Shown one piece after another: positions 2,155 through 32,428 of a DNA stretch of 36,557 nt (the stretch's first letter is position 1; every line of letters begins with the position of its first letter). The stretch lies in the IMG/VR virus record IMGVR_UViG_3300045988_075937; one strand, given 5' to 3'. Origin of the DNA: a virus. The notes below the pieces were generated by a model. The model was not told the origin of the DNA, searched no databases, and worked only from the letters and a program-made list of their open reading frames with translations. The translations under genes and the position numbers were made by a program.

Positions 2155-2167
2155 CTTCGTTTCCCTT

Positions 2168-2386: not shown

Positions 2387-2387
2387 C

Positions 2388-2962: not shown

Positions 2963-2977
2963 ATTACGCCTGCCTCC

Positions 2978-6432: not shown

Positions 6433-6489
6433 ACCCGCTAAGCCTCTGGGTGCATTGCATCTATGCGTATCATGGCGGGTCTTTTTTTA
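6433..6489 (+). terminator. Leader hairpin (ACCCGC...GCGGGT) followed by T7, between the promoter and the abi RBS (possible attenuator)
   Basis: A 6-bp GC-rich stem with a 36-nt loop that contains an inner GCAT/ATGC stem, then a T7 run. Confidence 0.4.
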
Positions 6490-6513
6490 TGTCAATTTTT
6501 GAGGATGTCCAAT

Positions 6514-10496: not shown

Positions 10497-10925
10497 TTAT
10501 GCGGTGGTTTCATCATCGGTCACGCCCAGCTCCAAAAGAGTCAGGCGGTAGTCCTGGTCAAGGTTCAAAGCGTCCGCGTCCGCAAGAGCGGCATTCAGCG
10601 CCGCCACCGTCTCCGGCAGCTTGTCCTTCGCTTCCTGCTTTTTGCGTTCTTCTTCCTGCGCGGCCAGCTCTTCGGCGGTGTAGCGGATGTATCTCTGCAC
10701 TGGCATCTGCTCAGTCCATGCGGCCTGCGCAGGCACGCCCGGCACATCAATGACCTTCCGCACATCCCTGCCGCCGTTGGGGTACTCCGCCACCGTCTCG
10801 TAGTGGCTCACTTCCTCTACACCTTCCACAGCCGGGTGCTCCACTGGTTCGGTGTCGTCCACCAGATACCCAAGCGTCAGGTCCGGGTTTTCAATGGCTG
10901 CACCGTTCTCGTCAATGATCTTCAT
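10497..10925 (-). CDS. Hypothetical tail-fibre-associated protein (142 aa)
   Basis: AAAGGAGG RBS. Position between the tail fibre and XkdX. Confidence 0.6.
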   Translation of the reverse strand: MKIIDENGAAIENPDLTLGYLVDDTEPVEHPAVEGVEEVSHYETVAEYPNGGRDVRKVIDVPGVPAQAAWTEQMPVQRYIRYTAEELAAQEEERKKQEAKDKLPETVAALNAALADADALNLDQDYRLTLLELGVTDDETTA

Positions 10926-10943: not shown

Positions 10944-12386
10944 TCAGGCCACGCGCCGCCAGATGTGCACATAGTAGGCGGCAGGCTGCACGGTGGCGCT
11001 GCGGCCGTAGATGGCATTAGACTTGGACGCATCCAGACTGAACTTATATACATCAGAAAAGTTACTGTATTCGCCCGTAGATGCGATCTCGCTGCCGGCA
11101 GTGAATGCGCCAGATACCTTATGTTCACCCTTTTTTACATCCGCGACAAAAGAGCCTGTGATGTTCGGCAGTCCGGCCTCCACGGTGGTGCCCGCTGCGT
11201 GGCCGCTGCCAGCACCCATCAGTACCCGGTTCTGCGCAATCTCCTGCCATGTACCGCCGAACAGTGCGGCAGGGCTTGTACGTGCGGTGCTCTGGTAGAT
11301 GCTGCCCACGGGGTAAGGGTCCGGGGCAGTACCGCCCGCCAGATGCAGCGTGCCGTCTGCATCTGCCGTGAAGTCGTCACTCAGCTTGACACCGCCCAGC
11401 GTGGTGGTGGTGGCGGCGGGGAGGGTGTAGTGCACGGTGTCGCCGCTGCCAAAGGTCAGCACCAGTTCTCCGTTTTGCAGCTCTGCACTCTTCAGGTAGT
11501 CACCGCTTTCCTTTTCCACCGCACCCACGTCGTCCGCAGTCAACGGGGTATTCTTTCCGGTGCCGCCATGTGCTGCGGGCAGGATGCCGGTCATGTTTTC
11601 CAGTGTCGTGGTGTCCTTGGTCTGCATGGTCTTCGTGCTTCCGTCGCCGAAGGTCAGCGTCAGGGTGCGGTCTGTCAGCGAAATGCTCTTCACGTAGCCC
11701 GCGCTGTTCGCTCCCACCGCACCAAGATCCTCCGCCGTCAGGGTCACAACGCCGCCCTTGCCGTTCACCTTTACCACCGCGCCATCTTCGGGCGGCGCAA
11801 AATTCTCGGCACGATCTGCAGCCCGCTGCGCCCGCTCCGCATCGCCTTGGGCGCTGCCCGCCGCTTTCTGTGCCATTTTTGCCGCCCTTGCCGCGTTCGC
11901 TCCGGCTGTCGCTGCAGTGTCTGCGTCCCGCTTTGCTGCTGCGGCCGCGTTCCGCGCTTCCTTTGCGCTTTCCTGTGCCCCGGTCGCATATCCCAGCACC
12001 CGCGCCACAAAAAGCTCGTACTGCGTCGGGCTGATCTCTGCATCGCCGTCTGTGTTCAGTGTTTCATAGCAGTCATACCGGGCCGGTCGGGTCAGCGCCC
12101 GGTATCCGTCCTCACCCAGAGCCAGCAGCATCCAGCTGCCGCAGGGGCTGGCGGTAAATTCCTTGCCCACCGCTGCGCTGTACTCCTCGTCCAGCAGGAT
12201 CGGTGTCGGCAGTGTGCCGTCCTGCCGCTGGATGTGCAGCGTCACGGCACATCCGGCCCACTCCTGCGGCAGCTCAAACTTCAGCCTTTCCACATTGGCG
12301 CTGCTCTGCCCGCCCAGATGCAGCACCCGCATCTCCGGGCCAAACTCCACACCGCCAAAGTTTTTCCGAATAATTTTCACCCGCAT
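10944..12386 (-). CDS. Tail fibre / receptor-binding protein (480 aa)
   Basis: GGAGG lies 7 nt upstream of the ATG at 12386. An Ala-rich coiled coil is present. The C-terminal motif DPYPVGSIYQS....LFGGTWQEI..RVLMGAG is typical of phage fibre/collar C-termini. Confidence 0.8.
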   Translation of the reverse strand: MRVKIIRKNFGGVEFGPEMRVLHLGGQSSANVERLKFELPQEWAGCAVTLHIQRQDGTLPTPILLDEEYSAAVGKEFTASPCGSWMLLALGEDGYRALTRPARYDCYETLNTDGDAEISPTQYELFVARVLGYATGAQESAKEARNAAAAAKRDADTAATAGANAARAAKMAQKAAGSAQGDAERAQRAADRAENFAPPEDGAVVKVNGKGGVVTLTAEDLGAVGANSAGYVKSISLTDRTLTLTFGDGSTKTMQTKDTTTLENMTGILPAAHGGTGKNTPLTADDVGAVEKESGDYLKSAELQNGELVLTFGSGDTVHYTLPAATTTTLGGVKLSDDFTADADGTLHLAGGTAPDPYPVGSIYQSTARTSPAALFGGTWQEIAQNRVLMGAGSGHAAGTTVEAGLPNITGSFVADVKKGEHKVSGAFTAGSEIASTGEYSNFSDVYKFSLDASKSNAIYGRSATVQPAAYYVHIWRRVA

Positions 12387-12409
12387 CCCGCTGCCTCCTT
12401 CCGTCCTTC

Positions 12410-12453
12410 TCAGCCTATCACACAAACGTCCGTAATAACACTGCGGACTTTTT
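12410..12453 (-). promoter_or_regulatory. Late-promoter-like box, copy 2: GTCCGCAGTGTT-N16-TGaTAGGCT (extended -10), 20-nt leader to the tail-fibre ATG
   Basis: Collinear with the box at 34610..34653, with identical spacing (24 nt between the two blocks). Confidence 0.55.
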
Positions 12454-12488
12454 TCAAACTTTTCCATTTCAAAAGAACCACATATACA

Positions 12489-12533: not shown

Positions 12534-15500
12534 TTACCTCACTGCCGCATATGGGTCCGGTTTCGGTCCTTCCTCCGCTTTCTTTTCTGCCTCCTCCACC
12601 CACTGGGCAAAGTTTTTCTCCGTGTACAGCTCTTCTCCGTCTGCGTCCTTGAGCGCCAACAGCATTTTTTCCATCTGCTGCCGGTCTGCATCGCTTCCCG
12701 CAAGGTACTCCGGCTTTGCTGTCTCGGTGATCTTGCTTTTAAGTGTCGTCGCGCTCTTGCCCGCCTTCGCCAGCCTGTCATATTCTTCCTGCACAGCACC
12801 TGCATCCCAGCTGTCCACCGCTTCCACAAGGTCGTCCGTCACGCTGGCGTTATCGCCCTTCAGCTGCTTTTCGGCCAGCTGGTTTACCGCACCGGTCACG
12901 CAGTCCACCACATCCCCGCGCTTTCCCTTCGGCAGGCCCAGCACTTCGCTCAGCTGTTCGATCATCTCGTTTTCCAGCTCGTACCGCTTCTGGTCGTTTC
13001 CTGCATTCTGCTCTTCAGCAGCCTGCCGCACCCGCACGTCGTACTTTACAAGGCGGCTCTTCAGCTGGCTGTACATTTTGTTTTCCGCAATGGTTCCCGC
13101 TTCCACCATAGCGTTCAGCTTCTCCACTGCGGCCTTTGCTTCGTCGCTGTCGCCGCCGGCATAGGCGTTGTACAGCCGGTCATACTGGCCGGTGGCGCTT
13201 TGGGGCACAGAATTAAAGCTGAACTGTCCTCCGTGCGCAAGATTTTCAAGGTCACCATAGTAGCCCTTTACCGCTTCTACAATCTTCCGTCCATTGCCGT
13301 AGGGTACACCCGCCACTTCAAAGCTGTCCTCCAGCAGCGTCATGCTGCGCTGCATCAGCTTATTGTGGTGCTTTTGCAGCTGTTCTTCGTCCATTTCACT
13401 GGTGTCTTTCCGGAACTCCGCAAAAAACTTCTGCACATCTCCGGCCAGATCATTCACCACGCTGATGCTTGCTGCACTCAGCACGTCGTAATCCTTGCCG
13501 TTCACAGCATTGTCGATCAGGCTGTATAACTCACTTCCGTACAAAAAGTTTCCCGCAAAACTTTCTGTGTACAGGCTTGCAAACCGTTTCCACATGCTCT
13601 TCACGGTCACATCGCCGTTTTCGTCCTGCTCCCGGTCCCACCGGTGCAAAAGGAAATCTGCGCCGATCTTCATGATCGCAAATACTGCTGTCTGTACCGT
13701 CTGGCTCACAATGGCCCGGTTCCGCTGCTGTGTTGCCCGCTGCAGTTCTGCTTTGTTCTCATCGCTCTGGTTCTGCCGGTAGCGCTCCGCCTGTGCTTTG
13801 TAATCTCCTATGGCATCTGCCAGAATGCCGTAGTTCTGGAAACGCTGGGTGGTAAACATGGTCAGCTGCTTCAGCAGTTCATTGGGGTTACGCTGAATGC
13901 CCGCCCGCTGCATCACGGTGTAGTTGGGCTGTGTTTGCTCGATCACCTTCTGATAGGTGCGGTTCACCGCTTCCCAGTAGGCCGGGCTGCCTGTCACCTC
14001 CGCGCCTTCAAACTCGGCCGTGTGATTCTGCACGTATCGCTTGCTGCCTTCCCATAGCGCCGCCACCGTCACTTCGTCCATCCCGTTGATCCAGCCGGTC
14101 AGCCAGTTCGGCAGCTTGTCCATGCCCTTTTCGGCAAGGGTTTCCCGGTTTCCAATGCTGGCAAGCTCGCCGTTCTGGCTGCCGCGCTTGCGCCAGTCCA
14201 GCAGCACGTCTCCGTGCTCTTTGATCTCCGTTTCCAGCGCTGTCCGCGCCTTGGGCGAAAGATTCTTCACAAACGGCACCACTGCCGCCATGGTGTCGCC
14301 GCCCAGCACCGCAGCCGCCGTCGGCAGGCTTGCCGCCTGCGCAATGGCAACACCCGGGTTCAACGTCAGCACCGCGCCTGCATAGTTTCCGCGCAGGTTT
14401 CCCAATACTTTGTTAAAGGTGCTGGGCCGCTTGCGCTGGGTAGTCTGCAGGTCGGTCAGCAGGTCATCGATGTAGCTCACCGCATCTTTGCCCCACTGTT
14501 CCTTGATGATGCCGTTCTTCAGGTTTTCAAGGCCTTCCCGCGTCTCCACGCCGCTGTTCAGGATCTTCTGCACGTCCCGGATAGGTGCCGCAAGCCCTGC
14601 ATACGCTGCCGTATCCCGCAGGCTGCGCTGCACTACGTTCGCGCATTCTTCCAGCAAAATGGGCTGTCCACTCTTCACGCGGTTCTTCAGGAAACCGCGT
14701 CCCTCAATGGTGGCATCCAGATTCAGGCCGTCGATCTGGGTCGCCAGCACCGATTTATCCACCGCAATGGGGTAGTAGTTTTTCACGGTTGCCCGCTGGT
14801 AGCCCACCAGTTGCAGGCTCGTCTCGTTGATGAGCTTTGTGGTGTAGTTGTCGAAGAACTCCTTCATGTCCGCGCACCATGCCCTGTCATAGTCGGTCAT
14901 GGCCGCTTCCACCGTCTGCAGGATGCTGTCCGCTGTCGGGGTCCCGTCCGCATCCGTCAGCATTCCCAGATGTACGGTCTGTCCCTTCTGGTAAGCCTGC
15001 TCGATGTCGCCCTTGTTGTACAGCTTTGCATCCGGGATCACAAGTCCGCCGTTCATCAGGTGGTTCAGGCTGTCGGTGTTGTGCAGGTGCATGTACAAAC
15101 TGCACAGCTGTGCATGGGTCAGTTCGGCTTTCTTTCCCTTCACATCGGTCAGGCCCACGTCCACAAGGTCTGCGCCCGGGCCTGCAAAGTTCTGCATCTC
15201 CTTCACATGCTCTTTTCCGGTCACGTTGGCAAACAGCTTTTCGCCTTCCACGGTGATCTTCGTCTGCCGGTACTGGCCGTCGTTCAGCATGTTCGCCATC
15301 TTTTCCATCTGGCCGTTCTTCGCGTAGCCGCCCAGCATACGGAACACCCGCTCCGCGCCCAGCATGTCCAGCTGATACTTTGTCAGCAGATTGTGCATGC
15401 CGTCCAGCTTTCCGCCGGGGTGGTTGCCCTTGCTGGCATTCACCTCGCTGGCTGCGCCTTCTGCGATTGCGCTCACTTCCTCGGCCTTTGCAAGGCTCAC

Positions 15501-18500
15501 CGTCTTGTTTGCATTGCGGATCACATGCAGCGTCGAGCTGGTAATAGCCTTCAGCATCCGCATCTGATCCACCGTCATGGGCAGATAGGTGCGGTTCTCC
15601 GTCTCCCGGATGCGTTTGCGCAGCCGTTCCTGCAGTGCCCATGCTTTCTCGCTGTCCGGTAAAGCTTCTGCCTCGGCCAGCTGTTCGTGCAGTTTGGTCA
15701 GCTTTGCATCCTTCGTTGCCTGCAGGTCGTCCCGCAGCGTCTGGATCAGGGTATCCACGCCGGTCTGCTTCCATTCTTCGGTCATGGCGTTGGGGCTGCT
15801 CTCGCTGCCCGCGCTTTGCCGGATCCGATCCTGCAGCCTCGTCAGCTGGTTCACGGCCCGTTCGTTCAGAATGGTCATGTCCGCCAGCTTTGCCACCTGT
15901 GCTGCCGCATCGATCAGCCCCGGCTGCACATACTTGTCCTTGCTTGGCCGCAGCAGCATCTGGTTCAGCTGTGCCGCGTTCTGCCGGATGCTGCGTTTCA
16001 GCTCATCCATCTTCCGTGCATCCCGCGCCCGCTGCACTCGCTTTTCCGCTACTGTCTTCGCAACGGCAATGTCTTCGTCCCGCTGCTGCCGGGCTGTTTC
16101 AATGGCAAGGGCATTCCGCTGCGCCTGTTTCTGCTCCCATGCGGCCCGCTTGCGTTCGTTGTCTGCCTCCCATTCCATGATCTCATTTTCCTGCACGATC
16201 AGGCTGTATTCCGCCTTGTCCGCGCGCCGCTGCTCCTGCCGCAGCTGCCACGCCAGTTCGTTTTTCTCGCTGCGCAGTTTCTGCATTTCCAGCTTTGCCT
16301 CGTCCAGCATTTCCTGCCGTTCGGCCTTCAGGCGTTTCACTTCCTGCTTCATTTCCCGTTCATAGCTTTCCCGCAGCACCGTCAGCTTTTCGTTCAGGTT
16401 GCCCACATTGGAAACATCCACACCAAAAGTTTCAAGGTTCTGGTCCAGCATCTTTTCCGCTCTTGCGTTCTGCCGCTGCAGTTCGGTCATCTGCTGTACT
16501 TCGGCGTTCCGGTCTGCAGTGCGCCGGTTTTCCTGCATTCTGCGGCCAAACTCCCGCTGCTGTGCTTTCTGTACGCCGCGCAGTTCCTTCGTTACCTCTG
16601 CGGCACGTTCTTTGCTGCCTGCTGCGGCTCTTGCCACATCCATATTGTGTCGCTGGATGCCCTCAAAAATAGCCTGTGCGTCGGTCATCTCCGGTGTCGC
16701 CATAATGTCACCGATGATCCTGCCCGCCAGTTCGATCTTTGCATCCTCATACTCTGCATCGTCTGCAAACCGGCTCATCGTCGCAGGCTTGATGGCATCG
16801 TGCAGGTTCATCAGCACATTCAGCCACTCGGTGCTTTCCATGCTCATTGCACCGTCCACACCCGCCTGCTGCGCTGCAGCTTTCCACAATGCCTTTGCGC
16901 CGTCGCTGGTGCCGCCCACAGCGCGGTTGTCGTTGATCACGCTTTCGTACTGCTGTGCCGGGTTTCCGTCCCGCACGCCGTCGACCTGCCGCAGGCTCAC
17001 GCCGTGCTTCCGTGCCTCGGCCACCGCTGCGCTCCAGCTGCCGTAGGCTTTCACCAGTTCTGCCTTTGCCTGTCCGCTTCGGTTCACGGTATATTCCAGC
17101 TTGTGCAGTTCCGGGTATTCGTCCCACAGCTCACTGTTGCGGTAAACTGCCCCGTCCAGAATTTCTCCCGCCAGCGTTTCGGCCAGCGCATTGGCTTTTT
17201 CCATGTTCGCACCGTCGGCCTTCAGGTAGTCCACCAGTACTTCGGTCTCCCGCGCAAGCTTTGCCCGGTCCACCTTACTGCCGTTCGCCTTTGCCCAGCG
17301 GCTGGCCAGTCCTTCAATGGCCGTCCGGCTCACCTTCACACCCCGTGTCAGCCCAAAGAACTGGCTCAGGGTGTCCAGTGCTGCAGCCTTGTCCGCAATG
17401 GTGCGGCTTGCCATCTGCTGGTCGTTCCGCTTCGCGTCACGGCTGGCCTGCTCTGCCAGCTGATAGCGGAACTTTGCAAGGTCGCTTTCTTGTGCCAGTT
17501 CACCGGTCTGGTAATATTCCCGGATCTCCCGCACTACGCGGTCAGCATCCACACGTCCGCTGTATTCCTTGCCGGCTGCCACCCGACCATCTGCTGTGGA
17601 GATGTCCAGTGTGAACTGCCGTTTCTCGCCGCCCAGCTCCTGCACCATTCGCCAGATCTGTTCCAGCTGCTGCGTGGTGGGTGCTGTGTCTGCCGAGAGA
17701 TCCACTCCCGGTGCTTCAGCCATCACGCGCACATTGCCGTCCAGCAGAAATTCGTTCAGCGTTTCCGTTCCATTTTTCACCTCTGCCGAACCGAACACGC
17801 TCATGATCTCCCGGTGATCGGTATCTCGGGTTCGGTCATTCTGGGCAAAGTCCAGCATCTGGCCGTCCGGCAGAATGTACCCGGCTCGTCTGAAGTCCTC
17901 TGTCGTGCCAAACCGTTCTTTTGCCAGTACGCGGCGGTATTCTGCCTTTCCGCCGTGGGCTTCGGCCTTGGCATCATATACCGCCTGTTCTGCTTTGCCT
18001 TTTTTTGCGTTCTGCTGCTGCATCCGGGCACCGGCCTCTTTGATCCGGCCGTTCAGCACAGCGCTCTGGTCTTCCAGCTGCGCCATACGGGCATTGTAGT
18101 CTTTGCGCTTTGCAAGATAATTCTGGTATTCTTCGCTGTCCCGGTAGGCTTTTGCTTCTGCAGAAAAAATCCCCAGTGCCTTCTTCTTCGCCTCGATCTC
18201 TTTCACGGCGTCGCTTCCCAGCCAGGCACTGCGTTCTTCCTTCAGCTCCCGCCGCTGCTCGTCCAGCCGCTGCTGTTCGTCGCGCAGCTTCGTCAGCTCG
18301 TCTGCCTCGCTCAACTGATACCGTACATTTTTCTTCAGCGTCCCGTCATTTCCCTTGTTTTCAGCGGCTTCCTGTGCTATACTCTGGTTAGAGATCTTCG
18401 ACCCGCTGCTCCCCGAATCTTCGGATTCCATGTGGGCTTTGCCGAAGGTCTCCGTAAAGCTCTCCGGCAATCTACTCCTTGAATCTTCGGATTCTACGTG

Positions 18501-21500
18501 GGTACCACCGGAGGGCTTTATTTTTGTTTCTTTGATGTTAACAATATCATAAAAAATCTCCCGTGTATCCGGTTTGATGGCTGTCAGCACATCTGCCTCA
18601 TACGCGTTTTCGCCCACGCGGATTTTAATTCTTCCGCGGTTGAAGGCTTCCGCATTTTTGTGATTTGCGGGCTCGCGGTACACCTCATCCGCAGTTGCAA
18701 TGATTTCATCAAGATTGGCAGCCATGCGCATCTTGTCCGCATACGCTGTGGCATTTTCCCACTGTAATGCCTTTGAATACTTCGACCAGACAAACTCATT
18801 GCGTCCATCTTTGCTGTTCAGAATTGTCCAGCCGTTTCTTACAAAGCCATCCGGGAAACGTTCTCTGATTGCCTGCTTGACTACCGATTTCCAGTTTTCC
18901 TGCGGGATTCCTTTCAGAATATCCTCGTCGATCTGAATGTAAGTTTCTCCCTCGGCATCTTTCTTGATTTCAAACCTTGTCCCTTCCGCCGCGCCCTTGT
19001 TCTCAAGGGCTGCGGCGTTTTCTTTTGCGGCGCGCAGGCTGTCCATAGCCCTCTCCGCGTGGGCAAAGTATTCGTCCTGCAGCACCCGCTTTTCTGCCGC
19101 CGCAAGGCGCTGTGCTTTCAGGGCGGCTTTGTTCTCCGGGTCTCTTGCCAGCACTTCCTTTGCGCGGCTCACGATGTCGCTCAAAAGCTCCTTCACCTTG
19201 GTCATCACCTTGTGGATGCCGCCTGCCTTGCCTGCGTTCTTTTCAGCCTGCCCGCGCTGGAACTCCACCCAGCGCTTAAAGCTTGCTTCATCGCTGAAGA
19301 TTCCGCGCCATGCGTCCGCCACAAGTTCTTCTGCAGCTTCCTCGTAGCTCAGCCCCTGCTGTGCATAGTCGGAAAGCTTCCCCCGGATCATCTCGTCAAT
19401 GCCTTCAAATCCCTCGCTCTTTGCCAGAAATTCCAGTGCATGCTGCTGCAGTGCCTGCGCACCCTCTGCATCCAGTGAGTTGTACCAGTGGTAGTCCTCG
19501 TGCAGGATTGTGCCAAACACATCCTCTGCCCGGTCGTTGAAGAAAATGCGCGCCGTCTCGGTGTCCACATAAGCCCTCACCCGGTCGCTGCCTTGCAGCA
19601 CCGTTTTCAGCACCGCATCCGTGTTCGTGGCCTTCGCATTCAGTTCGATCAGCTGCGTGCCCACCTCGTTTGCCGTGCGCATCGTTCCCTTATACAACAC
19701 CCGGCCGCTGCCGCTGGTGCTTTCCGCCGTCAGCCTTCCGCCAAGGCTTGCGCGCTGCATGTTTCCGGCTTCCAGTTCCCCGTGTCCCTGCAGCCATGCC
19801 AGCTGCAGCGCTTCCCGTCCGCCGTCCTGTGCCAGCACGTAATCGGTGTTCACAGCAAGGCCGCTCATGCCCTGCGCCAGCTCCATAGCCTTGTCAAAGG
19901 TGGTCACATCTTCCATCTGTCCCAGCCGGTACAGGCTGCTGGCCGCAGCCGCATACCGCCCGGCATCTCCAATTTCTGTCGGCATGTTCCTGCTGATGGT
20001 CGCACTTGCCCCATCTGATACCTGCCATCGGGTCAGCTCCTGCTGCACCTCCCGCTGCTTTGCGGTCAGGCTCTGCTGTTCAAGGCCGTAGGTTTCCCGC
20101 ATCCCGCCAGACTGTTCCGCCGGGCTGCTTTCCACCCTTTCCCCGGTGTTCTCCACGGCAGCTCCGCTCTGGCCCAGCTCACTTTCCGTCTGTGCCTGCC
20201 GCGCAGATCTGTCAGCTTCCATTTTTTCTACAATTGCGGCCGTTTTTTGTGCTTCAACCGTCGCATTTTCGGTAGCTGCGGCCGGAGCCTGTGCTGCCCG
20301 CTGCTGTGTTGTCATTTCCCGCAATACCTGCCGGGTCTTTGCTGCCGTTTCCGGCAGCTCAATACCGTATTCTTCCGCAAAGGCAGCGCGGTTCGCTTCA
20401 TTGGCCGCATTCGGTGTAAATAGGTTGATGGTCTTGCTCGTAAGCTGCCCATCCTGCACAGCTGCGGCAAGCTGCTGCACAGCCGGGTTTTCGCTCTGTA
20501 CCATCGGCGCAGTATCCTGCATGGTCGCAAATCCGCTTGCCGCCCCCATCACTTCCGGCTGCACCGTTTCCTGCGTAGCAGCCGTAGGTTGTCGGGTGTC
20601 TGCTGCAGCTTCTTCCGGTGTCTGCTGCATCGCCATTCCCGGCTCCTGTGCCCGCACTTCGTCCTGCAATGCCTGCCGTACCTGTTCCACCTGTCCTTCG
20701 TAGTATGCCCGCTTCACGTTGCCCACAAGGCTGGCATCGCCGCCATTCATCTTCGCAAGCCCTGTGCCCACAGCACCGCCCAGGGCACCGGATGCACCGC
20801 CCGTCAGGCCGCTTTCCAGTGCGGTCAGAAAGGTGTCGCTTTTAAACAGGTCTGCCGCCGCTTCGCTGTCGCCCAGTGCTACATCAATGGCCTTGTCCGC
20901 ATAGGTCTCCACAAAGGCCTGCATGGCATTGTCCACGCCGCCGGAGATGGCATTTGCCACCGCCGGGTACTGCTGCGCAATCGCCCCGTCCGCCGCCACG
21001 CTGCGCACCATGTCCGCCAGTTTGCCCGCCAGTGTATCCTTTGCGTAGTCTGCGCCCATGGTCTTTGCAAGGTCAGCCGCACCTACGCTGTTAATGGCCC
21101 AGCCCGCGCCAAATTTTGCAAGGCCCCCGGCCAGCGTCTTGCCTGCACTTTCGCCCTTTTCAATGCTCTGGCCCATAGCCTCCGCACCGCCCTGCGCACT
21201 CAACACCGGCAGCACCCATGCCGGGTCAATGGCCGCCACCGCAAGGTTCTCGCCCGCACTGCTCGCAATGCCCAGTGCCTGCTTTGCAATGGGGCTAAGG
21301 CCCGCCTGTGCAGCTGCGGTCAGATCCTGTCCGCGCTTGTACAGCTGATAGCCAAAGCTCTTCTCCGGGTCTACGCTGTCATGCACTTCCGTTCCGGCAA
21401 TGCGCGCCCGCATGTTGTTGATCTCCTGCTGCGTGTAACCTTTTTCAATCAGCTCTGCATCCGTGTAGGCATCGCTCTGCGTTGTTTGTGCCGCCGGAGC

Positions 21501-22616
21501 ACTGGCCATTGCACCGCTGCTCTGTGCCAGCTGCAGCGTGTTGTCCCGCGCTGCATACCGCGTCTTTCCGCCGGTCATCAGGCGCAGCAGCTCCTGCTTC
21601 CGGTCGTCGCTCTGTACATCCTGCTGCAGCTGCTTCCAGTTCCCGCTGGTCGCCGCTGCATTCTTTACGCTCTGTACGCCGGTCTCTCCCGCCAGAAAAA
21701 CCGAGGATGCTACCGTGTCCCCAATGCCGCCAATGGTATTGGCCGCACGCCGCTCTGCACGCCGTCCTGCAGGCAGCGCATCAAAGTCGGCAATGTACTG
21801 CCGTGCTTCGCTGATCTCCTTGCGGCTGTATCCCTTTGCCAGCAATTCCGCGTCGGTGTAGTCCCGTCTGCCCACACTCTTTTCCGGTACTGCTGCTCTG
21901 GCTGCAGCACCGCTCACGCTCTGGGGCTGCATGGCGTTGTTTTTCTCGGCATAGCTCTGCCCGCCGGTGCCAATGCGCATCAGCGTCACAAGTTCCCGGT
22001 GCTTCGGGTCAGCGTCCATCCACTGGTTCAGTCGGTCAAAGTCTCTAAGATCGTCCGTCGCCTTCAGGTCTTCCGTGTACTGCTTCACCTTCTGCGCTGT
22101 CTGTGCATACCAGCCTTCGTCTCCGCTGGCAATGCCTGCAATGCGCTGGCGCCCAGTGGGCTGCACCGTTCCCGTTACCTTTGCCGCCGGGGCTGCAGCG
22201 CTCTTCGCGTTCAGCCATTCCGGCTGCGCAGTGCTGCTGCGTGTACCTGTACCGCTGTCGGTCACAATGCTGCTTTTGCCCGGATATGCCTGTGTGCTGC
22301 CCGTTTCCTGCGGCACTGTCAGCTGCAGCTTGTGGCTGCTGTCCATGCCCTTCATCTGCGCCAGCACCCGTGCACCAAGACCCGTGCCGGTGTTCTGCCT
22401 TGCAGCCGCAGCCGGGCTGGCAGCATTCTGTCCACTGTTTTTCGCTTTCCAGCTTTCCCGCGCTTTTGCAATGCGTTCCGGTGTCCACTTTTCCGTAGTG
22501 TTTGCTGTTCCCGCAGCTGTACCGGCGCTCGCCGTCCGGTTTGTGGTGCGGCTGTTGTTTTTCGCTTCCCAACTTTCTCTGTCTTTTTTCAGTCTTTCCG
22601 GTGTCCATTCGCTCAT
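12534..22616 (-). CDS. Giant (3360 aa) multidomain virion protein: putative internal/ejection protein fused to polyvalent effector-like modules (HExxH zincin motif, nuclease-like module, long coiled coils)
   Basis: A single uninterrupted ORF with AAGGAG 10 nt upstream of the ATG. It lies between the internal-protein genes and the tail fibre. HEDYH is at 19488..19502. See findings. Confidence 0.85.
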   Translation of the reverse strand: MSEWTPERLKKDRESWEAKNNSRTTNRTASAGTAAGTANTTEKWTPERIAKARESWKAKNSGQNAASPAAAARQNTGTGLGARVLAQMKGMDSSHKLQLTVPQETGSTQAYPGKSSIVTDSGTGTRSSTAQPEWLNAKSAAAPAAKVTGTVQPTGRQRIAGIASGDEGWYAQTAQKVKQYTEDLKATDDLRDFDRLNQWMDADPKHRELVTLMRIGTGGQSYAEKNNAMQPQSVSGAAARAAVPEKSVGRRDYTDAELLAKGYSRKEISEARQYIADFDALPAGRRAERRAANTIGGIGDTVASSVFLAGETGVQSVKNAAATSGNWKQLQQDVQSDDRKQELLRLMTGGKTRYAARDNTLQLAQSSGAMASAPAAQTTQSDAYTDAELIEKGYTQQEINNMRARIAGTEVHDSVDPEKSFGYQLYKRGQDLTAAAQAGLSPIAKQALGIASSAGENLAVAAIDPAWVLPVLSAQGGAEAMGQSIEKGESAGKTLAGGLAKFGAGWAINSVGAADLAKTMGADYAKDTLAGKLADMVRSVAADGAIAQQYPAVANAISGGVDNAMQAFVETYADKAIDVALGDSEAAADLFKSDTFLTALESGLTGGASGALGGAVGTGLAKMNGGDASLVGNVKRAYYEGQVEQVRQALQDEVRAQEPGMAMQQTPEEAAADTRQPTAATQETVQPEVMGAASGFATMQDTAPMVQSENPAVQQLAAAVQDGQLTSKTINLFTPNAANEANRAAFAEEYGIELPETAAKTRQVLREMTTQQRAAQAPAAATENATVEAQKTAAIVEKMEADRSARQAQTESELGQSGAAVENTGERVESSPAEQSGGMRETYGLEQQSLTAKQREVQQELTRWQVSDGASATISRNMPTEIGDAGRYAAAASSLYRLGQMEDVTTFDKAMELAQGMSGLAVNTDYVLAQDGGREALQLAWLQGHGELEAGNMQRASLGGRLTAESTSGSGRVLYKGTMRTANEVGTQLIELNAKATNTDAVLKTVLQGSDRVRAYVDTETARIFFNDRAEDVFGTILHEDYHWYNSLDAEGAQALQQHALEFLAKSEGFEGIDEMIRGKLSDYAQQGLSYEEAAEELVADAWRGIFSDEASFKRWVEFQRGQAEKNAGKAGGIHKVMTKVKELLSDIVSRAKEVLARDPENKAALKAQRLAAAEKRVLQDEYFAHAERAMDSLRAAKENAAALENKGAAEGTRFEIKKDAEGETYIQIDEDILKGIPQENWKSVVKQAIRERFPDGFVRNGWTILNSKDGRNEFVWSKYSKALQWENATAYADKMRMAANLDEIIATADEVYREPANHKNAEAFNRGRIKIRVGENAYEADVLTAIKPDTREIFYDIVNIKETKIKPSGGTHVESEDSRSRLPESFTETFGKAHMESEDSGSSGSKISNQSIAQEAAENKGNDGTLKKNVRYQLSEADELTKLRDEQQRLDEQRRELKEERSAWLGSDAVKEIEAKKKALGIFSAEAKAYRDSEEYQNYLAKRKDYNARMAQLEDQSAVLNGRIKEAGARMQQQNAKKGKAEQAVYDAKAEAHGGKAEYRRVLAKERFGTTEDFRRAGYILPDGQMLDFAQNDRTRDTDHREIMSVFGSAEVKNGTETLNEFLLDGNVRVMAEAPGVDLSADTAPTTQQLEQIWRMVQELGGEKRQFTLDISTADGRVAAGKEYSGRVDADRVVREIREYYQTGELAQESDLAKFRYQLAEQASRDAKRNDQQMASRTIADKAAALDTLSQFFGLTRGVKVSRTAIEGLASRWAKANGSKVDRAKLARETEVLVDYLKADGANMEKANALAETLAGEILDGAVYRNSELWDEYPELHKLEYTVNRSGQAKAELVKAYGSWSAAVAEARKHGVSLRQVDGVRDGNPAQQYESVINDNRAVGGTSDGAKALWKAAAQQAGVDGAMSMESTEWLNVLMNLHDAIKPATMSRFADDAEYEDAKIELAGRIIGDIMATPEMTDAQAIFEGIQRHNMDVARAAAGSKERAAEVTKELRGVQKAQQREFGRRMQENRRTADRNAEVQQMTELQRQNARAEKMLDQNLETFGVDVSNVGNLNEKLTVLRESYEREMKQEVKRLKAERQEMLDEAKLEMQKLRSEKNELAWQLRQEQRRADKAEYSLIVQENEIMEWEADNERKRAAWEQKQAQRNALAIETARQQRDEDIAVAKTVAEKRVQRARDARKMDELKRSIRQNAAQLNQMLLRPSKDKYVQPGLIDAAAQVAKLADMTILNERAVNQLTRLQDRIRQSAGSESSPNAMTEEWKQTGVDTLIQTLRDDLQATKDAKLTKLHEQLAEAEALPDSEKAWALQERLRKRIRETENRTYLPMTVDQMRMLKAITSSTLHVIRNANKTVSLAKAEEVSAIAEGAASEVNASKGNHPGGKLDGMHNLLTKYQLDMLGAERVFRMLGGYAKNGQMEKMANMLNDGQYRQTKITVEGEKLFANVTGKEHVKEMQNFAGPGADLVDVGLTDVKGKKAELTHAQLCSLYMHLHNTDSLNHLMNGGLVIPDAKLYNKGDIEQAYQKGQTVHLGMLTDADGTPTADSILQTVEAAMTDYDRAWCADMKEFFDNYTTKLINETSLQLVGYQRATVKNYYPIAVDKSVLATQIDGLNLDATIEGRGFLKNRVKSGQPILLEECANVVQRSLRDTAAYAGLAAPIRDVQKILNSGVETREGLENLKNGIIKEQWGKDAVSYIDDLLTDLQTTQRKRPSTFNKVLGNLRGNYAGAVLTLNPGVAIAQAASLPTAAAVLGGDTMAAVVPFVKNLSPKARTALETEIKEHGDVLLDWRKRGSQNGELASIGNRETLAEKGMDKLPNWLTGWINGMDEVTVAALWEGSKRYVQNHTAEFEGAEVTGSPAYWEAVNRTYQKVIEQTQPNYTVMQRAGIQRNPNELLKQLTMFTTQRFQNYGILADAIGDYKAQAERYRQNQSDENKAELQRATQQRNRAIVSQTVQTAVFAIMKIGADFLLHRWDREQDENGDVTVKSMWKRFASLYTESFAGNFLYGSELYSLIDNAVNGKDYDVLSAASISVVNDLAGDVQKFFAEFRKDTSEMDEEQLQKHHNKLMQRSMTLLEDSFEVAGVPYGNGRKIVEAVKGYYGDLENLAHGGQFSFNSVPQSATGQYDRLYNAYAGGDSDEAKAAVEKLNAMVEAGTIAENKMYSQLKSRLVKYDVRVRQAAEEQNAGNDQKRYELENEMIEQLSEVLGLPKGKRGDVVDCVTGAVNQLAEKQLKGDNASVTDDLVEAVDSWDAGAVQEEYDRLAKAGKSATTLKSKITETAKPEYLAGSDADRQQMEKMLLALKDADGEELYTEKNFAQWVEEAEKKAEEGPKPDPYAAVR

Positions 22617-22631: not shown

Positions 22632-24011
22632 TTATCGTTCCGCTTCCAGAATTTTCATAATGGACGACAGCGTGTTGTCCGTAATGCCGTCTGCAGAAAG
22701 CCTGCCCGCAATGTCGTCCAGACTGTAGCCACTCGCCAGCATGCCGCGCGCCGTTGCAAGTCCGCTGCGCAGCGGACTGCTACGGGTGTTTGCCCGCTCA
22801 CTGGTGCCGCTGCTTCCCGCCGTGCTGTTTTTCAGCCACCCTGCGTCCGTCAGGGTCTTCTGGTAGAAGTCATACAGCGGGTCTGTCTTCTTCATCCCGG
22901 AGAATTTTGTTGCCATCGTCTGCAGCTGGCTGTTGGTAAAGCCGGTCGTTCCCGTCTTGCTGCTGCCAGAGCTTGTGTTTCCGCTCTTTGTGCTGCTCGT
23001 TCTGCTGCTCCCGCTGCCGGTCGTCTTGTAACGGTTATTCAGTGCCAGCTGGCTTGCTGTGTAATTCAGCTGCCGCTGGTTCAGTGTGGGCGAATAGTCA
23101 ATGCTGCCGGTATCTACGCCCGCCATCTGCAGGTAGTTTTTGGCTGCAGTATCGTTGCCGCTTCCTGCAAGGCTTGCGCCCTGCAGCAGTGCTGCCATCT
23201 GATCCTGCTGCACACTGCTCATACCCTGCCATGTATCCAGCATCGTCCCGTCCAAGCCATATTTCGTCAGCACTGCTTTCGCTGCATCATCAAAGCCCGC
23301 CTGTTTGTATGCGGCGGCCTGCTGCAGCGCCGCCACCTGATCGCTCAGCTGAGTGCGTGCCAGACTGTCATTGTACTGTTTTTCCTTGAACTCGTTCTCC
23401 CACTTCTGCTGGCTGTACCCCTTGTACGCGTCGTATCCTTCCATCACCGTGCTGCCAATGCCCTTCACGGCGTTCCACACATTGTTCCAGAAGTCGCTGT
23501 TCTCCTGTCGTGCCTGCTGGGTGCGGTCATAAAGGTAATTGCGCCAGTTTGCTGCATTGCTCACGCTGCTGTCATACTCGCCGCGTTCCAGTGCGCGCTG
23601 TCCCAGCAAGGCATCCAGCCGGTCGCCCGCACCGGCAAGCTCCTGCTGCCACTGGGCCAGCGCGTCCGCCCGGGCCGCAGCAAGGGTGCTGCCGGTGTTT
23701 GCCGTCTGCGCCGCTGCTGCCTGATCTGCCGCGCTCTTCGCATAGTCCGCGCCATACCCGCCGGAAAGCGCATCTGTGGTCGCTGCTGCAGCATCTGCAC
23801 CGGCATTCGCATTGCCCGTCATCCGTGTCAGTGCGTCCTTGTAGCCGCTGTCTGCCGTGGTAAAGTCAAAGCCAGCACCGCTGGCCGTGCCCATCTTGTC
23901 CAGCGTGTCGGCAATGCCTTGCGCATACTGGTCATCGTAGGCCCCCGGCATGGCGTTTTCTGCGTCCTGCAGGCGCTGCTGCGCGTCGTTCAATCTCTTG
24001 ATGGTCCCCAT
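22632..24011 (-). CDS. Putative internal virion protein (459 aa), paralogous at its N-terminus to the upstream 200-aa protein
   Basis: GGAG lies 7 nt upstream of the ATG at 24011. Collinear motifs are shared with 24028..24630. A Ser/Thr-rich linker is present. Confidence 0.7.
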   Translation of the reverse strand: MGTIKRLNDAQQRLQDAENAMPGAYDDQYAQGIADTLDKMGTASGAGFDFTTADSGYKDALTRMTGNANAGADAAAATTDALSGGYGADYAKSAADQAAAAQTANTGSTLAAARADALAQWQQELAGAGDRLDALLGQRALERGEYDSSVSNAANWRNYLYDRTQQARQENSDFWNNVWNAVKGIGSTVMEGYDAYKGYSQQKWENEFKEKQYNDSLARTQLSDQVAALQQAAAYKQAGFDDAAKAVLTKYGLDGTMLDTWQGMSSVQQDQMAALLQGASLAGSGNDTAAKNYLQMAGVDTGSIDYSPTLNQRQLNYTASQLALNNRYKTTGSGSSRTSSTKSGNTSSGSSKTGTTGFTNSQLQTMATKFSGMKKTDPLYDFYQKTLTDAGWLKNSTAGSSGTSERANTRSSPLRSGLATARGMLASGYSLDDIAGRLSADGITDNTLSSIMKILEAER

Positions 24012-24027
24012 CCCTTTTCTCCTTTCA

Positions 24028-24630
24028 TCACATAAAGAACAGCGGCAGGATCTTCGCCGCAATGCTTGCCACCTGCAGCGCCCCGTTCACAAAATTCTGC
24101 CATCCGTTCTGCTTTGCGCTGTAGGCGTTATCATATTCGTTCTTTTTGTACTGCAAACCCTCGTTCCAGTTGGCAAGATCGTTCTGGTACTGGCTGTAGT
24201 CCTGCTTTTCCGCGCTCTGCAGCCCGCTCAGCTGCTGCTGCAGGCCGCTTTTCTCCGTGTTGTACTGGGCCTTGCTCTGGCTGTAAAGGTTGTCCAGCAC
24301 ATTGTCCAAACGGTTCATCGTGCTGGCATAGGCGTTCTGTCCCGCCTGTGTGCCGTAGCTGGAGCCGTAGCCGCCGGTCATGGCGGCGGCGTTCGCCTGC
24401 GCATTCTGGTTTGCCAGCTTTGCCTGCCGGGTGTACTGGTTCTTGTACTGTTGATAAGCTGCATCTGCATCCGGGTCATAATCAAACTCGCCCATATTTT
24501 CCAGCTTGCCCATCACATCCTTGATCTGGCTCTGATACTTGCTCTGGTAGTCCGCAGGCTTCGTTTTCTCATACTGTTCCAGGTTGTACCGCGCCGTGTT
24601 CAGGCGGTCATTGTTTCCAAACAATCCCAT
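24028..24630 (-). CDS. Putative internal virion protein (200 aa), Q/N/Y-rich with a hydrophobic C-terminus
   Basis: RBS GAAGGAA. Composition and position support the call. Confidence 0.65.
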   Translation of the reverse strand: MGLFGNNDRLNTARYNLEQYEKTKPADYQSKYQSQIKDVMGKLENMGEFDYDPDADAAYQQYKNQYTRQAKLANQNAQANAAAMTGGYGSSYGTQAGQNAYASTMNRLDNVLDNLYSQSKAQYNTEKSGLQQQLSGLQSAEKQDYSQYQNDLANWNEGLQYKKNEYDNAYSAKQNGWQNFVNGALQVASIAAKILPLFFM

Positions 24631-24841: not shown

Positions 24842-26743
24842 TCATTTTCTCGGCTGTGCCGCGCTCACTCGCTCACCGGTCGCCGCCGCCAGCGTAAAGG
24901 CCACACTACGCAGCACCATCTGCCCTGTGCCGTAGATCTTCAGCTGCAGCGTATCTGCCCGCCGGGGCACAAAGGGCAGGTTGATGCGCTGGTGATCCTT
25001 CCCTGCCGCGCAGGTGCCCAAAGTTTCAAAAGCTCCGCCGTCATAGCTTGCAGCCACCGTCACCACCGTGTGGGCCAGTGCATCCAGCCGCACCGTCACC
25101 CGGCTGATGTACTTGTCGTCCGGTACGCTCAGGCCAATGTCGCCGCTCACCGCTTCAAACTGCAGCGCCGTTTCCTGCCCTGCTTCCTCCGTGTCGCTTT
25201 CCCGGTCAGGATCTGCGGCCCACAGTACGCTGCCGTCCCACAGGTACAGCTGCTGCCCGGTGGATACCATCTCGGTGCCTGCAGCGCTTTCCTCGTGCCA
25301 CAGGCCTTTTTCCGTGTCGTATACCAAAAGCCGTCCGGCCTGCGGGCCGCCTGCTTTCTGGTGCAGGTACAGGTAATACCGCATGTCCATGCTTCCCGCC
25401 ATGGCCCAGTCCACCGCAGTCAGCCCGCTGGTGTCCAGCGCAGCGGATACCTTTGTCGGCAGGCTTCCGCCCCATGCCATCACCCCGTCCGGCGAAAGAT
25501 AATACAGCGTCTCTGCGATCACGCACAGGCTGTTCGCTGCGTTTGCCGCCACGCCCCGGCAGCGCACGCTGCTCATCTGGTAATCGCTGGGCTTTGTGCC
25601 GTACAGTTTGTGGATGCAGTTTTCCTTGAAGAATAGCAGGTATCCCAGACAGCTTGCAGCGCCGGTAAATGCGCCGTCACTGCCCACGCTCACGGCATAG
25701 CTGTCCGCTGCAATGCCCTGATAGCTGTACCAGTTGGTCGGGTCGCCCAGAGCGCAGGCGTAAATGGTGTTCTCCTTCCGGCTGCACCCCCACACCCGGT
25801 TTCCCTGTTCCGTCACAAAGTCCAGTTCCGGCACCCGCCGCTCCACCTTCACCGGTGCGGCCGCTGCATCGTTCTCGGTCACGGTACCGTCGGCGCTCTT
25901 CCATGTCACACCGGTCTCCGTCACGGTCCAGCTGCCGTAATACCGGTCGCTGTCCTCGGCCCGTGTCAGCACTGCCACCATCTCATCGCCGTCCATGGTC
26001 TGGATCATCACCTCACCGTTCAGTCCTTTTGCCACTGCGTTGCACACTGCGTCCGGCATCCCGCTTATGGTCACAGTGTCCCCCTCCCGGATCACTCCGC
26101 CGATCCCCGGACACCGGATCTTCACCGCGCTCAGCAGCACTTCCACCCACTTTTTGTTTTTTGCACTGTAGCGTAGCAGCACCGCATTGCTGTCATAGGC
26201 TTCGTCGCTGTCACTTTTCAAAAACAGCTGTCCGTCCTCCGGCTCTTTCGGTTCGGTCTTGCCTGCGCCTGCCGGGGTGTATGTCCGGCCTTCGGCATCG
26301 CAGGGGGTCACGGTCACGCTTTTCCCGCCCATCTCCCACTGTGCGCCAAGGCGCGTCAGTTCGCCGGTGCCCGTGTCAAAAGCCACCTTGTCAGGCCAGA
26401 TCAGCACTTTTGTGCCCATGCCCGCCATGGCCTTGCGGTCATCGGTCAGCACGTTCTCCAGCACCACCGCACCGGTACGTACTTCTTCGTCCGGGGTGTA
26501 TTCCAGCGTCTTTCCGCGGCAGATCAGCAGCCCATTCAGGTGGTACATTCCGTTCACACCCTGTACCGTCCGCACATTCCTGCGCATTTTCCGCGTCTGC
26601 AGCGCCGGGTATCCCCGGCTGGAAAAATTCATTTCCCCGCTGAACTCTGCCTCGCTGCAGCCATATCCTTCATTCAGCCCACCAAAGGCCCGCAGCATCT
26701 GGCGGCTCGTCTGCAGCACGTTCAGGTTCGTTCCGTCCATCAT
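24842..26743 (-). CDS. Large tail protein (633 aa), possibly tail-tubular/nozzle-like
   Basis: Position after the connector gene in a T7-like gene order. The product assignment rests on synteny only. Confidence 0.4.
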   Translation of the reverse strand: MMDGTNLNVLQTSRQMLRAFGGLNEGYGCSEAEFSGEMNFSSRGYPALQTRKMRRNVRTVQGVNGMYHLNGLLICRGKTLEYTPDEEVRTGAVVLENVLTDDRKAMAGMGTKVLIWPDKVAFDTGTGELTRLGAQWEMGGKSVTVTPCDAEGRTYTPAGAGKTEPKEPEDGQLFLKSDSDEAYDSNAVLLRYSAKNKKWVEVLLSAVKIRCPGIGGVIREGDTVTISGMPDAVCNAVAKGLNGEVMIQTMDGDEMVAVLTRAEDSDRYYGSWTVTETGVTWKSADGTVTENDAAAAPVKVERRVPELDFVTEQGNRVWGCSRKENTIYACALGDPTNWYSYQGIAADSYAVSVGSDGAFTGAASCLGYLLFFKENCIHKLYGTKPSDYQMSSVRCRGVAANAANSLCVIAETLYYLSPDGVMAWGGSLPTKVSAALDTSGLTAVDWAMAGSMDMRYYLYLHQKAGGPQAGRLLVYDTEKGLWHEESAAGTEMVSTGQQLYLWDGSVLWAADPDRESDTEEAGQETALQFEAVSGDIGLSVPDDKYISRVTVRLDALAHTVVTVAASYDGGAFETLGTCAAGKDHQRINLPFVPRRADTLQLKIYGTGQMVLRSVAFTLAAATGERVSAAQPRK

Positions 26744-28625: not shown

Positions 28626-28683
28626 TTGTTTATCCTCCTTCAAAAGGGTTTATCTTTCTCGCATTCTTCGCGCGGGAAATCTC

Positions 28684-30048: not shown

Positions 30049-30066
30049 TTTATTCTCCTTCCCCGG

Positions 30067-30330
30067 TCACTTGTTCAGATCGATCTGCTCGATCGCCGCC
30101 CGGATCTCCATCGTTTCCAGATACATTCCCATGCGTTTCTGCTGCTCCCGCAGCAGTTCAAGCGGGCAATCATGCCTCGGCTCTTCCCTTCCGGTCCTTT
30201 CCGCCGCCTCGATCCGGTTGCAAAACCCTTTCAGTCTTTCGTACCGTTCCTTCGTCTGCCGGTACTCCGCTTTAAAGCGTTCCCGGTAGTCGTTACTGAT
30301 CATGCCATCGATGGTGTCTTTCAGCTCCAT
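30067..30330 (-). CDS. Small helical protein (87 aa) between portal and scaffold
   Basis: AGGAGG RBS. It vaguely resembles small 'crAss001_48-related' helical proteins (low confidence). Confidence 0.55.
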   Translation of the reverse strand: MELKDTIDGMISNDYRERFKAEYRQTKERYERLKGFCNRIEAAERTGREEPRHDCPLELLREQQKRMGMYLETMEIRAAIEQIDLNK

Positions 30331-30342
30331 GCCGTTCCTCCT

Positions 30343-32424: not shown

Positions 32425-32428
32425 CGTC

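Follow-up and report, generated by a model that had tools for sequence, protein, structure and literature searches.

A giant polyvalent-class protein encoded among the virion genes of a Faecalibacterium phage combines a conserved two-block chassis with an exchangeable cassette

The viral DNA analyzed here (IMG/VR virus record IMGVR_UViG_3300045988_075937), whose whole stretch of 36,557 bp is referred to as the window, is dominated by a single gene. On the minus strand, positions 12534..22616 form an uninterrupted open reading frame (ORF) that starts with ATG, follows a stop six codons upstream and encodes a protein of 3,360 amino acids (aa), in the following called the giant. The ORF takes up 27.6% of the window, which begins and ends with an exact 119-bp direct repeat (1-119 and 36439-36557) and therefore represents a circularly closed genome of about 36.4 kb. 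All genes of the late module lie on the minus strand, in the order terminase, portal, 87-aa ORF, Prp-scaffold fusion, capsid, small ORFs, genes for proteins of 127, 633, 200 and 476 aa, giant, fibre and endolysin, such that the giant is encoded between the 476-aa gene and the fibre gene. A first-pass annotation made from the sequence alone had pointed to an ORF of about 10 kb filling more than a quarter of the genome, and both statements hold. It had read the product as a podovirus-type internal virion protein expanded into a polyvalent multi-effector protein of unusual size; as detailed below, the giant indeed has the architecture of the polyvalent class, while the remainder of that description had to be revised.

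The giant is one real gene. A scan of species-representative genomes yielded 12 related loci, almost all of them from Faecalibacterium, and in ten of these a single uninterrupted ORF of 3,253-3,620 aa occupies the equivalent position. Two of the ten stem from cultured isolates, Faecalibacterium langellae CNCM I-4541 (3,375 aa) and Faecalibacterium prausnitzii APC923/61-1 (3,620 aa), so the long ORF is genuine and not an artefact of assembly. Frameshifts that split the ORF would have spoken against a single gene; the in-frame splits found in two metagenome relatives, L006 and L007, trace back to single substitutions. In L006, two apparent genes for 1,408 and 1,894 aa result from one GAA>TAA change (L006:14225-14227) in otherwise collinear sequence, and a 677/1,016-aa split in L007 results from one CAG>TAG change around 16122-16124, within the conserved LPMTVDQ. 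Prophage decay or sequencing errors may account for these nonsense codons. Recoding of stop codons is unlikely, given TAA at a Glu codon, a single substitution in either case and a window in which no tRNA genes were found. L007 also contains a genuine border between a gene for the N-terminal block and a gene for the C-terminal block, which are in different reading frames; the two halves can thus exist as separate adjacent genes. In this contig (ZHAN20-1 scaffold_476) the gene for the N-terminal block ends in MuF_C, both genes adjoin HicAB and regulatory genes in an arrangement that differs from that of the window, and no capsid gene was found within 10 kb upstream of them.

BLAST maps built from 240 homologues and the 12 genome-derived versions resolve the giant, at the level of sequence, into three parts: a conserved N-block (aa ~186-1217, common to ~80 proteins at ~50% identity), an exchangeable cassette (aa ~1217-1717) and a conserved C-part (aa ~1717-3360, common to more than 200 homologues at 58-99% identity). 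From the N- to the C-terminus, the following features were located:

22437..22610, minus strand: two tandem WTPER..RESW..AKN repeats, aa 3-60
21396..22043, minus strand: duplicated ~85-aa module ending in YTDAEL(L/I)xKGYxxxEI, aa 192-276 and 326-407
20697..21299, minus strand: Gly/Ala-rich segment within the N-block, about aa 440-640
19191..19727, minus strand: HExxH...E domain, aa 964-1142, candidate gluzincin metallopeptidase
18966..18977, minus strand: junction motif 1, R-F-E-I, aa 1214-1217, at the N-block/cassette border
18579..18896, minus strand: LPD3 domain (PF18798), aa 1241-1346, cassette slot 1
18312..18323, minus strand: junction motif 2, R-Y-Q-L, aa 1432-1435; in sister prophages the first residues of PBECR5
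17469..18311, minus strand: module in the PBECR5 slot, aa 1436-1716
17457..17468, minus strand: junction motif 3, R-Y-Q-L, aa 1717-1720, at the cassette/C-part border
16497..17456, minus strand: conserved module present in most C-part homologues, aa 1721-2040, modelled by AlphaFold2 (AF2) with low confidence
15540..16496, minus strand: charged region of long helices, aa 2041-2359, with predicted helices of 46-62 residues
12537..15539, minus strand: C-block, aa ~2360-3360, strongly conserved and predicted all-alpha, matching phrog_22978 and phrog_28077

Two modules of the cassette are exchangeable, and it is here that the affiliation with polyvalent proteins becomes evident. The first slot carries LPD3, which was recognized above the Pfam gathering score (E 1.4e-7 on the segment). 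A compact alpha/beta module at 18513..18983 (aa 1212-1368), for which the first-pass annotation had suggested a resemblance to nuclease-like domains, contains this LPD3 match, and the resemblance is not supported: LPD3 is a domain of unknown function, its comparison with PBECR5 by hhalign gave a probability of 1.3%, and no PBECR or BECR family matched anywhere in the giant when the whole protein and its segments were scanned with Pfam. The coding sequence of the LPD3 module falls into a sharp low-GC island (~48% versus ~60% for the gene, nt ~18350-19000), which suggests that the slot was acquired horizontally. In the related loci L009 and L017, the same slot is occupied by MuF_C, and in sister prophages LPD3 or MuF_C is followed by a PBECR5 RNase within the same borders, as judged by Pfam. 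The giant itself lacks the PBECR5 RNase that its sisters have in the next slot. In its place stands the module of aa 1436-1716, in which long helices precede a compact alpha/beta domain (aa ~1569-1709) and which AF2 modelled with confidence (pLDDT 75-91). Foldseek searches of PDB and BFVD retrieved no fold match for it, and its hhalign probabilities against PBECR5, the region following PBECR5 and LPD3 were all at or below 2% (1.1% for aa 1556-1717 against PBECR5). A divergent BECR identity of either this module or LPD3 is thus rejected by hhalign.

The borders of the cassette are marked. In the BLAST maps, the breakpoints of relatives cluster at aa 1217-1233, 1437-1446 and 1700-1717, and each cluster coincides with a short motif of the type R[FY][QE][LI], namely TRFEI at 1214, VRYQLSE at 1432 and FRYQLAE at 1717. 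The giant contains five copies of this motif versus 0.35 expected, and across the homologue set, whose members are related to each other, 234 copies were counted versus 38.5 expected. The PBECR5 Pfam model in the sister prophages begins exactly at a V-R-F-Q-L motif. As the motif is thus also the first strand of the PBECR5 model, it may be structural rather than a signal for processing or recombination. In a near-identical, otherwise syntenic phage (L001/L002), a 2,048-aa version of the giant (P0005) lacks aa 696-2066 altogether. Collectively, the sequence comparisons show an exchange of cassettes on a common chassis that is best explained as horizontal. Cleavage of the giant by the Prp protease is not claimed, because there is no strict L-x-L-Q-x-F|A/S site of the kind seen in the capsid protein and the Prp-scaffold fusion, and because the junction motif does not offer a Phe in position P1.

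The second element shared with polyvalent proteins lies in the N-block. A zincin motif, HExxH, had been proposed at 19488..19502 and is found exactly there, as HEDYH (aa 1039-1043). H1039, E1040 and H1043, together with a Glu about 55 residues downstream in AAEELV (aa 1094-1099), would make up the signature of a gluzincin. HExxH and the downstream Glu are invariant in 88 distinct segments from close homologues. In an alignment of ten sequences sharing 17-31% identity, the first His, the Glu, the distal Glu and one Ala are invariant and the second His is present in nine, and the triad pattern holds in 13 full-length giants as well. Among the Pfam and NCBIfam models, no zincin matched any of ten overlapping segments of the giant. 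A focused profile compared with PDB had as its top hits a neutral metalloprotease and the minigluzincin MJ1213, which aligned on the HExxH helices at an E value of only about 1. In an AF2 model of low confidence (pLDDT 27-49), two short strands come first and then the helices that bear HExxH and the distal Glu, which matches the layout described by Iyer et al. (PMC5512222). At the level of motifs, a gluzincin-type peptidase is the likely nature of this domain.

The remaining features of the N-block had largely been noticed before. The tandem WTPER repeats are real (local alignment score 82 versus a shuffle maximum of 40) and, wherever they occur in homologues, they are found at the extreme N-terminus (median relative position 0.01; 74 occurrences). 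The same applies to the duplicated module, originally estimated at ~80 aa, which scored 127 versus a shuffle maximum of 61 and whose closing motif gives the impression of a helix hairpin; its only family match is a weak one to phrog_649. Of the "Gly/Ala-rich hydrophobic stretches", the first half of the description stands (23% Ala, 14% Gly), and a consensus of giants sharing ~22% identity shows such a stretch, too; the second half needs qualifying, hydrophobicity being only moderate (a maximum of 1.33 for a Kyte-Doolittle window of 19 residues). Four shorter proteins that have the N-block only (P0146, P0147, P0157 and P0227) end in the same last ~70-160 residues as the giant (aa ~3179-3360; 12534-13070). 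This common end could be a shared tail for assembly or packaging, or it could result from internal deletions.

A large C-terminal region had likewise been anticipated, and about 1,000 aa are indeed conserved. The C-block contains dozens of invariant residues, for example in NPGVAIAQAASLPTAAAVLG, TQPNYT.MQRAGIQR and TMFTTQRFQN. Its only family matches are phrog_22978 and phrog_28077, both annotated as of unknown function; it has no Pfam family, and searches of PDB that used sequence, profile and fold gave no relative. The helices predicted at aa 1425-1466, 1495-1553, 2002-2063 and 2162-2222 are as long as 42-62 residues, and the region of aa 2041-2359 is likely a coiled coil according to these predictions. 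Two AF2 models were calculated (aa 880-2079 and aa 2161-3360; mean pLDDT ~53 each), which are confident solely for aa ~1439-1709; in the model of the C-block (mean 53), pLDDT is below 30 over the stretch that is conserved best. With either model, Foldseek found nothing in PDB below an E value of 0.09, and its significant matches in BFVD were exclusively sequence-driven ones to uncultured-virus proteins labelled PolyVal or LPD. Sequence and profile searches of PDB with the whole giant and with alignments A1, A2, A6 and A7 gave no significant relative. Scans of the ten overlapping segments against Pfam, PHROGs and NCBIfam recovered only LPD3 and PHROGs of unknown function. The PHROG matches below E 1e-3 are phrog_22978, phrog_28077 and phrog_649, all without an annotated function, and LPD3 is the only Pfam match.

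The first-pass annotation had considered the size of the protein and its combination of modules unusual for a genome of this length. This impression was not substantiated. An exhaustive profile search with the C-block returned 3,475 representative clusters (defined at 50% identity) with E<=1e-3, of which 1,144 reach E<=1e-30. Among the best 150 of these 3,475 representatives, the majority are 2,500-5,189 aa long and carry the C-block at their C-terminus, and since the sister proteins (3,253-3,620 aa) are equally large, the size of the giant is the family norm. Thirteen distant giants that are 20-36% identical to P0241, the alignment reference, show the identical succession of Gly/Ala-rich stretch, HExxH motif, a middle that varies and C-block. 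In these, Pfam recognizes ART-PolyVal (five), PBECR5 (three), MuF_C, PBECR3 and LPD3 (two each) and a methyltransferase (one), and in homologues with the same N-block the cargo that follows comprises PBECR5, PBECR3, MuF_C, KTSC and GH25. No member was found among 50,697 phage records, and tblastn searches with the C-block of the window and two divergent members retrieved no cultured phage but two or three unannotated faecal fragments. The giant is therefore no outlier: the family of giant polyvalent proteins to which it belongs as a typical member is very large and uncultured.

The genes around the giant bear on both its function and the type of phage that carries it:

27603..33889, minus strand: head module with large terminase, P22/SU10-type portal, Prp protease-scaffold fusion and major capsid protein
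24842..26743, minus strand: g633, matching phrog_511, "internal virion protein"
24028..24630, minus strand: g200, syntenic with the giant gene in the intact relatives examined
22632..24062, minus strand: g476, syntenic with the giant gene in the intact relatives examined
10944..12467, minus strand: fibre gene (507 aa) directly downstream of the giant, with Gp10_C and head-fibre motifs
7607..8740, plus strand: integrase, in a low-GC island
6463..7389, plus strand: Abi_2-like abortive-infection protein, in the low-GC island
5217..5933, plus strand: 238-aa ORF in the low-GC island, to which no family was assigned

The order g633-g200-g476-giant-fibre is kept in the intact relatives examined. Among the genes upstream of the giant that the first-pass annotation had labelled connector, tail protein and small internal proteins, family matches are limited to phrog_511 and to phrog_12105, a family of unknown function matched by the 127-aa protein g127; the fusion of the Prp cysteine protease with a scaffold-like protein corresponds to phrog_13908. 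Downstream, the ~10.3-kb region in which the endolysin gene lies is reached after just two genes, the fibre gene and a 142-aa ORF (10497..10925). A setting among virion genes had been predicted and is evident, as the giant is preceded by the genes for P22-type portal, Prp-scaffold and capsid and followed by that for the fibre, and the comparison with the slot of the ejection or core protein in T7-like gene orders is also justified as far as position is concerned, that is, between head/tail-adaptor genes and fibre. No families for tail tube, sheath, tail chaperone, tape measure, Dit or Tal were detected in the window or in its relatives, which makes a short-tailed morphology likely. Between 4000 and 9000 of the window, genes on the plus strand form an island of low GC content (43-49% versus ~60%), which looks like a module of lysogeny genes and morons whose composition is foreign; since it bears an integrase, together with the Abi-like gene and on the opposite strand, the phage can be regarded as temperate. 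It is a temperate Faecalibacterium phage and, judged by its gene content, probably a short-tailed one.

Some further observations concern the head genes and truncated relatives. The 87-aa ORF in the gap between portal and Prp-scaffold (30067-30330, minus strand) has a counterpart in relatives that is recorded with Pfam PF21825 (Sequestin). The capsid protein (27603-28643, minus strand) begins with MSKKRLDLQMF|ADAS, and in the Prp-scaffold fusion (28684-30048, minus strand) NMDLQLF|GDG directly follows the Prp domain. Both have the look of Prp-type cleavage sites and are comparable to those of L27 and phage 80alpha (LNLQFF|A), suggesting that the phage-encoded Prp may free itself from the scaffold and trim the capsid protein. 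Three integrase-bearing elements of ~21 kb in Faecalibacterium contigs (L003, L004 and L005), which represent a widespread type, encode a giant of 2,083 aa that starts inside LPD3; this version, P0091, is indexed in 63 collection blocks. What they retain is half of the scaffold gene, the capsid gene (69% identity), g127, g633 as far as aa 229, fibres and lysis genes; terminase, portal and Prp are missing, as are g200, g476 and the N-block. On the basis of this gene content, we prefer deletion-derived prophage remnants over satellites as an explanation for these elements.

Polyvalent proteins have been described as multidomain proteins that are encoded near virion genes, are predicted to be injected with the DNA and often contain a zincin to which their processing may be due (Iyer, Burroughs, Anand, de Souza and Aravind 2017, J Bacteriol; PMC5512222). 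The giant resembles the phage-type members: it is a giant multidomain protein of a late virion locus in a phage with portal and terminase, and it combines LPD3 above the Pfam gathering threshold with a candidate HExxH domain. Its relatives carry PBECR RNases, MuF_C and ART-PolyVal, with a content that varies between close relatives, again as described there. Thus, the part of the first-pass reading that assigned a polyvalent, multi-effector type can be retained, LPD3 being present in the giant itself and PBECR5, PBECR3, MuF_C, ART-PolyVal, KTSC, GH25 and a methyltransferase in its relatives. In contrast to the known set, the N-block and the ~1,000-aa C-block match no Pfam family, MPTase-PolyVal included, and this N/C chassis was not found in the available text of Iyer et al. 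(PMC5512222). Apart from the candidate zincin, the giant has no recognizable enzyme.

Among individual proteins, gp47 of the Stx phage phi24B offers the closest experimental parallel. It is a polyvalent protein of 2,811 aa that was detected in virions by mass spectrometry and has been proposed to be an ejection protein (bioRxiv 10.64898/2026.04.10.717836). Like the giant, it is a giant polyvalent protein of a temperate phage (short-tailed probably in the present case) with LPD-type domains and an HExxH segment (HEWFHSLDNY versus HEDYHWYNSLD in the giant). Unlike it, gp47 has LPD1, LPD5 and LPD38 instead of LPD3, its gene is located at the end of the genome record and not between tail-region genes and fibre, and the host of phi24B is Gram-negative. 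Iyer et al. (PMC5512222) discuss as packaged proteins the Dar proteins of P1 and the virion RNA polymerase (vRNAP) of N4; the N4-like vRNAP (gp50, about 3,500 aa) joins its cargo to a region for injection and to one for encapsidation, the latter with an HExxH zincin-like domain. The giant is similar in size, follows the same tripartite logic and has an HExxH domain, which is however located N-terminal to the cargo and not in a C-terminal encapsidation region, and it is devoid of an RNA polymerase module. By hhalign, probabilities were 2.5% for phi24B gp47, where nothing beyond the short HExxH stretch corresponded, and 0.08% for N4 vRNAP. Homology to either was accordingly rejected and the giant does not belong to the N4-like vRNAPs; as profile comparison found no homology, both proteins are analogues and not relatives.

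The genes for the ejection proteins of T7 (gp14, gp15 and gp16) and P22 (gp7, gp16 and gp20) follow those for head and neck and precede the fibre gene; the proteins are mostly helical, and one of them, T7 gp16, carries a transglycosylase. The giant shares their gene position and predominantly helical nature, and some of its relatives carry a lysozyme; yet it is two to three times larger, contains exchangeable effector-type domains and has no sequence or profile similarity to them. A peptidoglycan-lytic domain as in T7 gp16 was not found in the giant, GH25 being restricted to some N-block relatives. The same tension between likeness and difference applies to polymorphic toxins, in which demarcation motifs such as VENN in CdiA and PxxxxDPxGL in Rhs proteins separate the delivery part from the toxin, and to MuF-toxin fusions. 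The giant likewise combines a conserved, presumed delivery part with swappable modules and a border motif, [VTF]-R-[FY]-Q-L-[ADS]-E. Its cargo is internal and not C-terminal, however, and the motif, as also the first strand of PBECR5, may be structural. The reading as an expanded podovirus internal virion protein is hence not supported: homology to the T7 and P22 ejection proteins, to phi24B gp47 and to N4 vRNAP was not found, the halves of the protein are separate genes in one relative, and the architecture is better called a conserved two-block chassis with a cargo cassette.

We favour the reading, with a probability of about 0.6, that the giant is a phage-type polyvalent protein that is packaged and ejected and whose cassette acts on the host. 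It would be taken up into the capsid and later expelled along with the DNA; the N-block and the C-block would form the chassis for incorporation, exit and passage through the envelope; the cassette domains would act on host targets immediately after entry; and the HExxH domain would process the polyprotein, perhaps at R[FY][QE][LI], or attack the cell wall. The components of this scenario are not equally well founded. Packaging into the capsid and co-ejection with the DNA are probable by analogy, and the designation as an internal or ejected virion protein is one we infer from gene position and from the parallels with phi24B gp47 and N4 vRNAP. For the C-block, position, ubiquity and analogy suggest a role in incorporation and ejection. 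Roles of the cassette domains in anti-defence or host takeover are put forward tentatively, and processing at the junction motifs appears rather doubtful.

Several points weigh against this reading. Packaging and ejection are inferred for the giant itself by analogy; it has no homology to proteins whose packaging is experimentally established (hhalign 2.5% and 0.08%, see above) and no PHROG or Pfam matches to the ejection proteins of T7 or P22. It has no recognizable enzymatic effector, LPD3 and the module of aa 1436-1716 being functionally unannotated, and no zincin profile from Pfam, NCBIfam or PDB matches significantly. Its hydrophobic segments stay under the usual threshold for transmembrane segments, and the low confidence of both AF2 models leaves the folds of the chassis unmodelled.

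Alternative explanations must be measured against the same evidence. The giant could be an external structural protein of the virion, a tail hub, central fibre or adhesin, with a cassette acting outside the cell. The fibre gene is next to its own, a GH25 lysozyme or DUF6273 forms the end of some relatives, and the HExxH domain is possibly a cell-wall peptidase. Against this, Ig, beta-helix or fibre-repeat content is absent from the giant, which is predicted to be all-alpha, and the cargo of the family consists of BECR-type RNases and ADP-ribosyltransferases that act intracellularly. We thus consider an external role improbable.

A tape measure, i.e., a ruler of tail length or channel former in a long-tailed phage with divergent tail genes, to which domains were added, would fit a gene just upstream of the fibre genes, a prediction that is helical almost throughout, Gly/Ala-rich hydrophobic stretches, the low AF2 confidence that is usual for such proteins and weak BFVD matches to tape-measure proteins (E about 0.5-0.7). 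It is hard to reconcile with the lack of all long-tail families searched for, with the portal of P22/SU10 type and with the two genes that alone lie between the giant and the endolysin region. Furthermore, length varies from 2,048 to 3,620 aa among phages sharing structural genes, and neither Pfam nor PHROGs returned a tape-measure match. This explanation has a small chance of being correct.

Alternatively, the giant could be an intracellular polyprotein, for example a toxin or a factor for replication or transcription, which is produced late and never packaged. Evidence for packaging of the giant is indeed lacking, and the chassis blocks are without known function. On the other hand, the gene is embedded in a structural operon with conserved synteny, Pfam and NCBIfam scans revealed no polymerase, helicase or other replication domains, the comparison with N4 vRNAP was negative and, according to Iyer et al. 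(PMC5512222), phage-type polyvalent proteins are typically encoded among virion genes. A function exclusively inside the cell is accordingly given little credence. That the long ORF arose by misassembly or fusion of separate genes, as the true gene boundary in L007 and the in-frame stops in L006 and L007 might insinuate, is negligible in view of ten single ORFs in 12 independent genome loci, two of them isolate assemblies, and of stops that are single-base substitutions within collinear sequence.

Returning to the polyvalent protein with its chassis and cassette, this family commits over a quarter of a phage's small genome to one protein and is extremely common in prophages of human-gut Faecalibacterium and Oscillospiraceae while being uncultured among phages. 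As a speculative extension, for which we claim no more than a modest chance, the N- and C-blocks may be a capsid-to-cell delivery chassis of phages of gut Firmicutes that comprises at least 3,475 clusters, with cargo slots that are marked by [VTF]-R-[FY]-Q-L, swapped horizontally and maybe released by the HExxH peptidase in cis; aa 1436-1716 would then be a new effector. With their RNases, ADP-ribosyltransferases, LPD3 and the module of aa 1436-1716, the cassettes form a natural collection of candidate effectors for injection into an important commensal, and the intact copies carried by the cultured strains F. langellae CNCM I-4541 and F. prausnitzii APC923/61-1 make the prediction of 2017, that such proteins are packaged, ejected and processed, testable.

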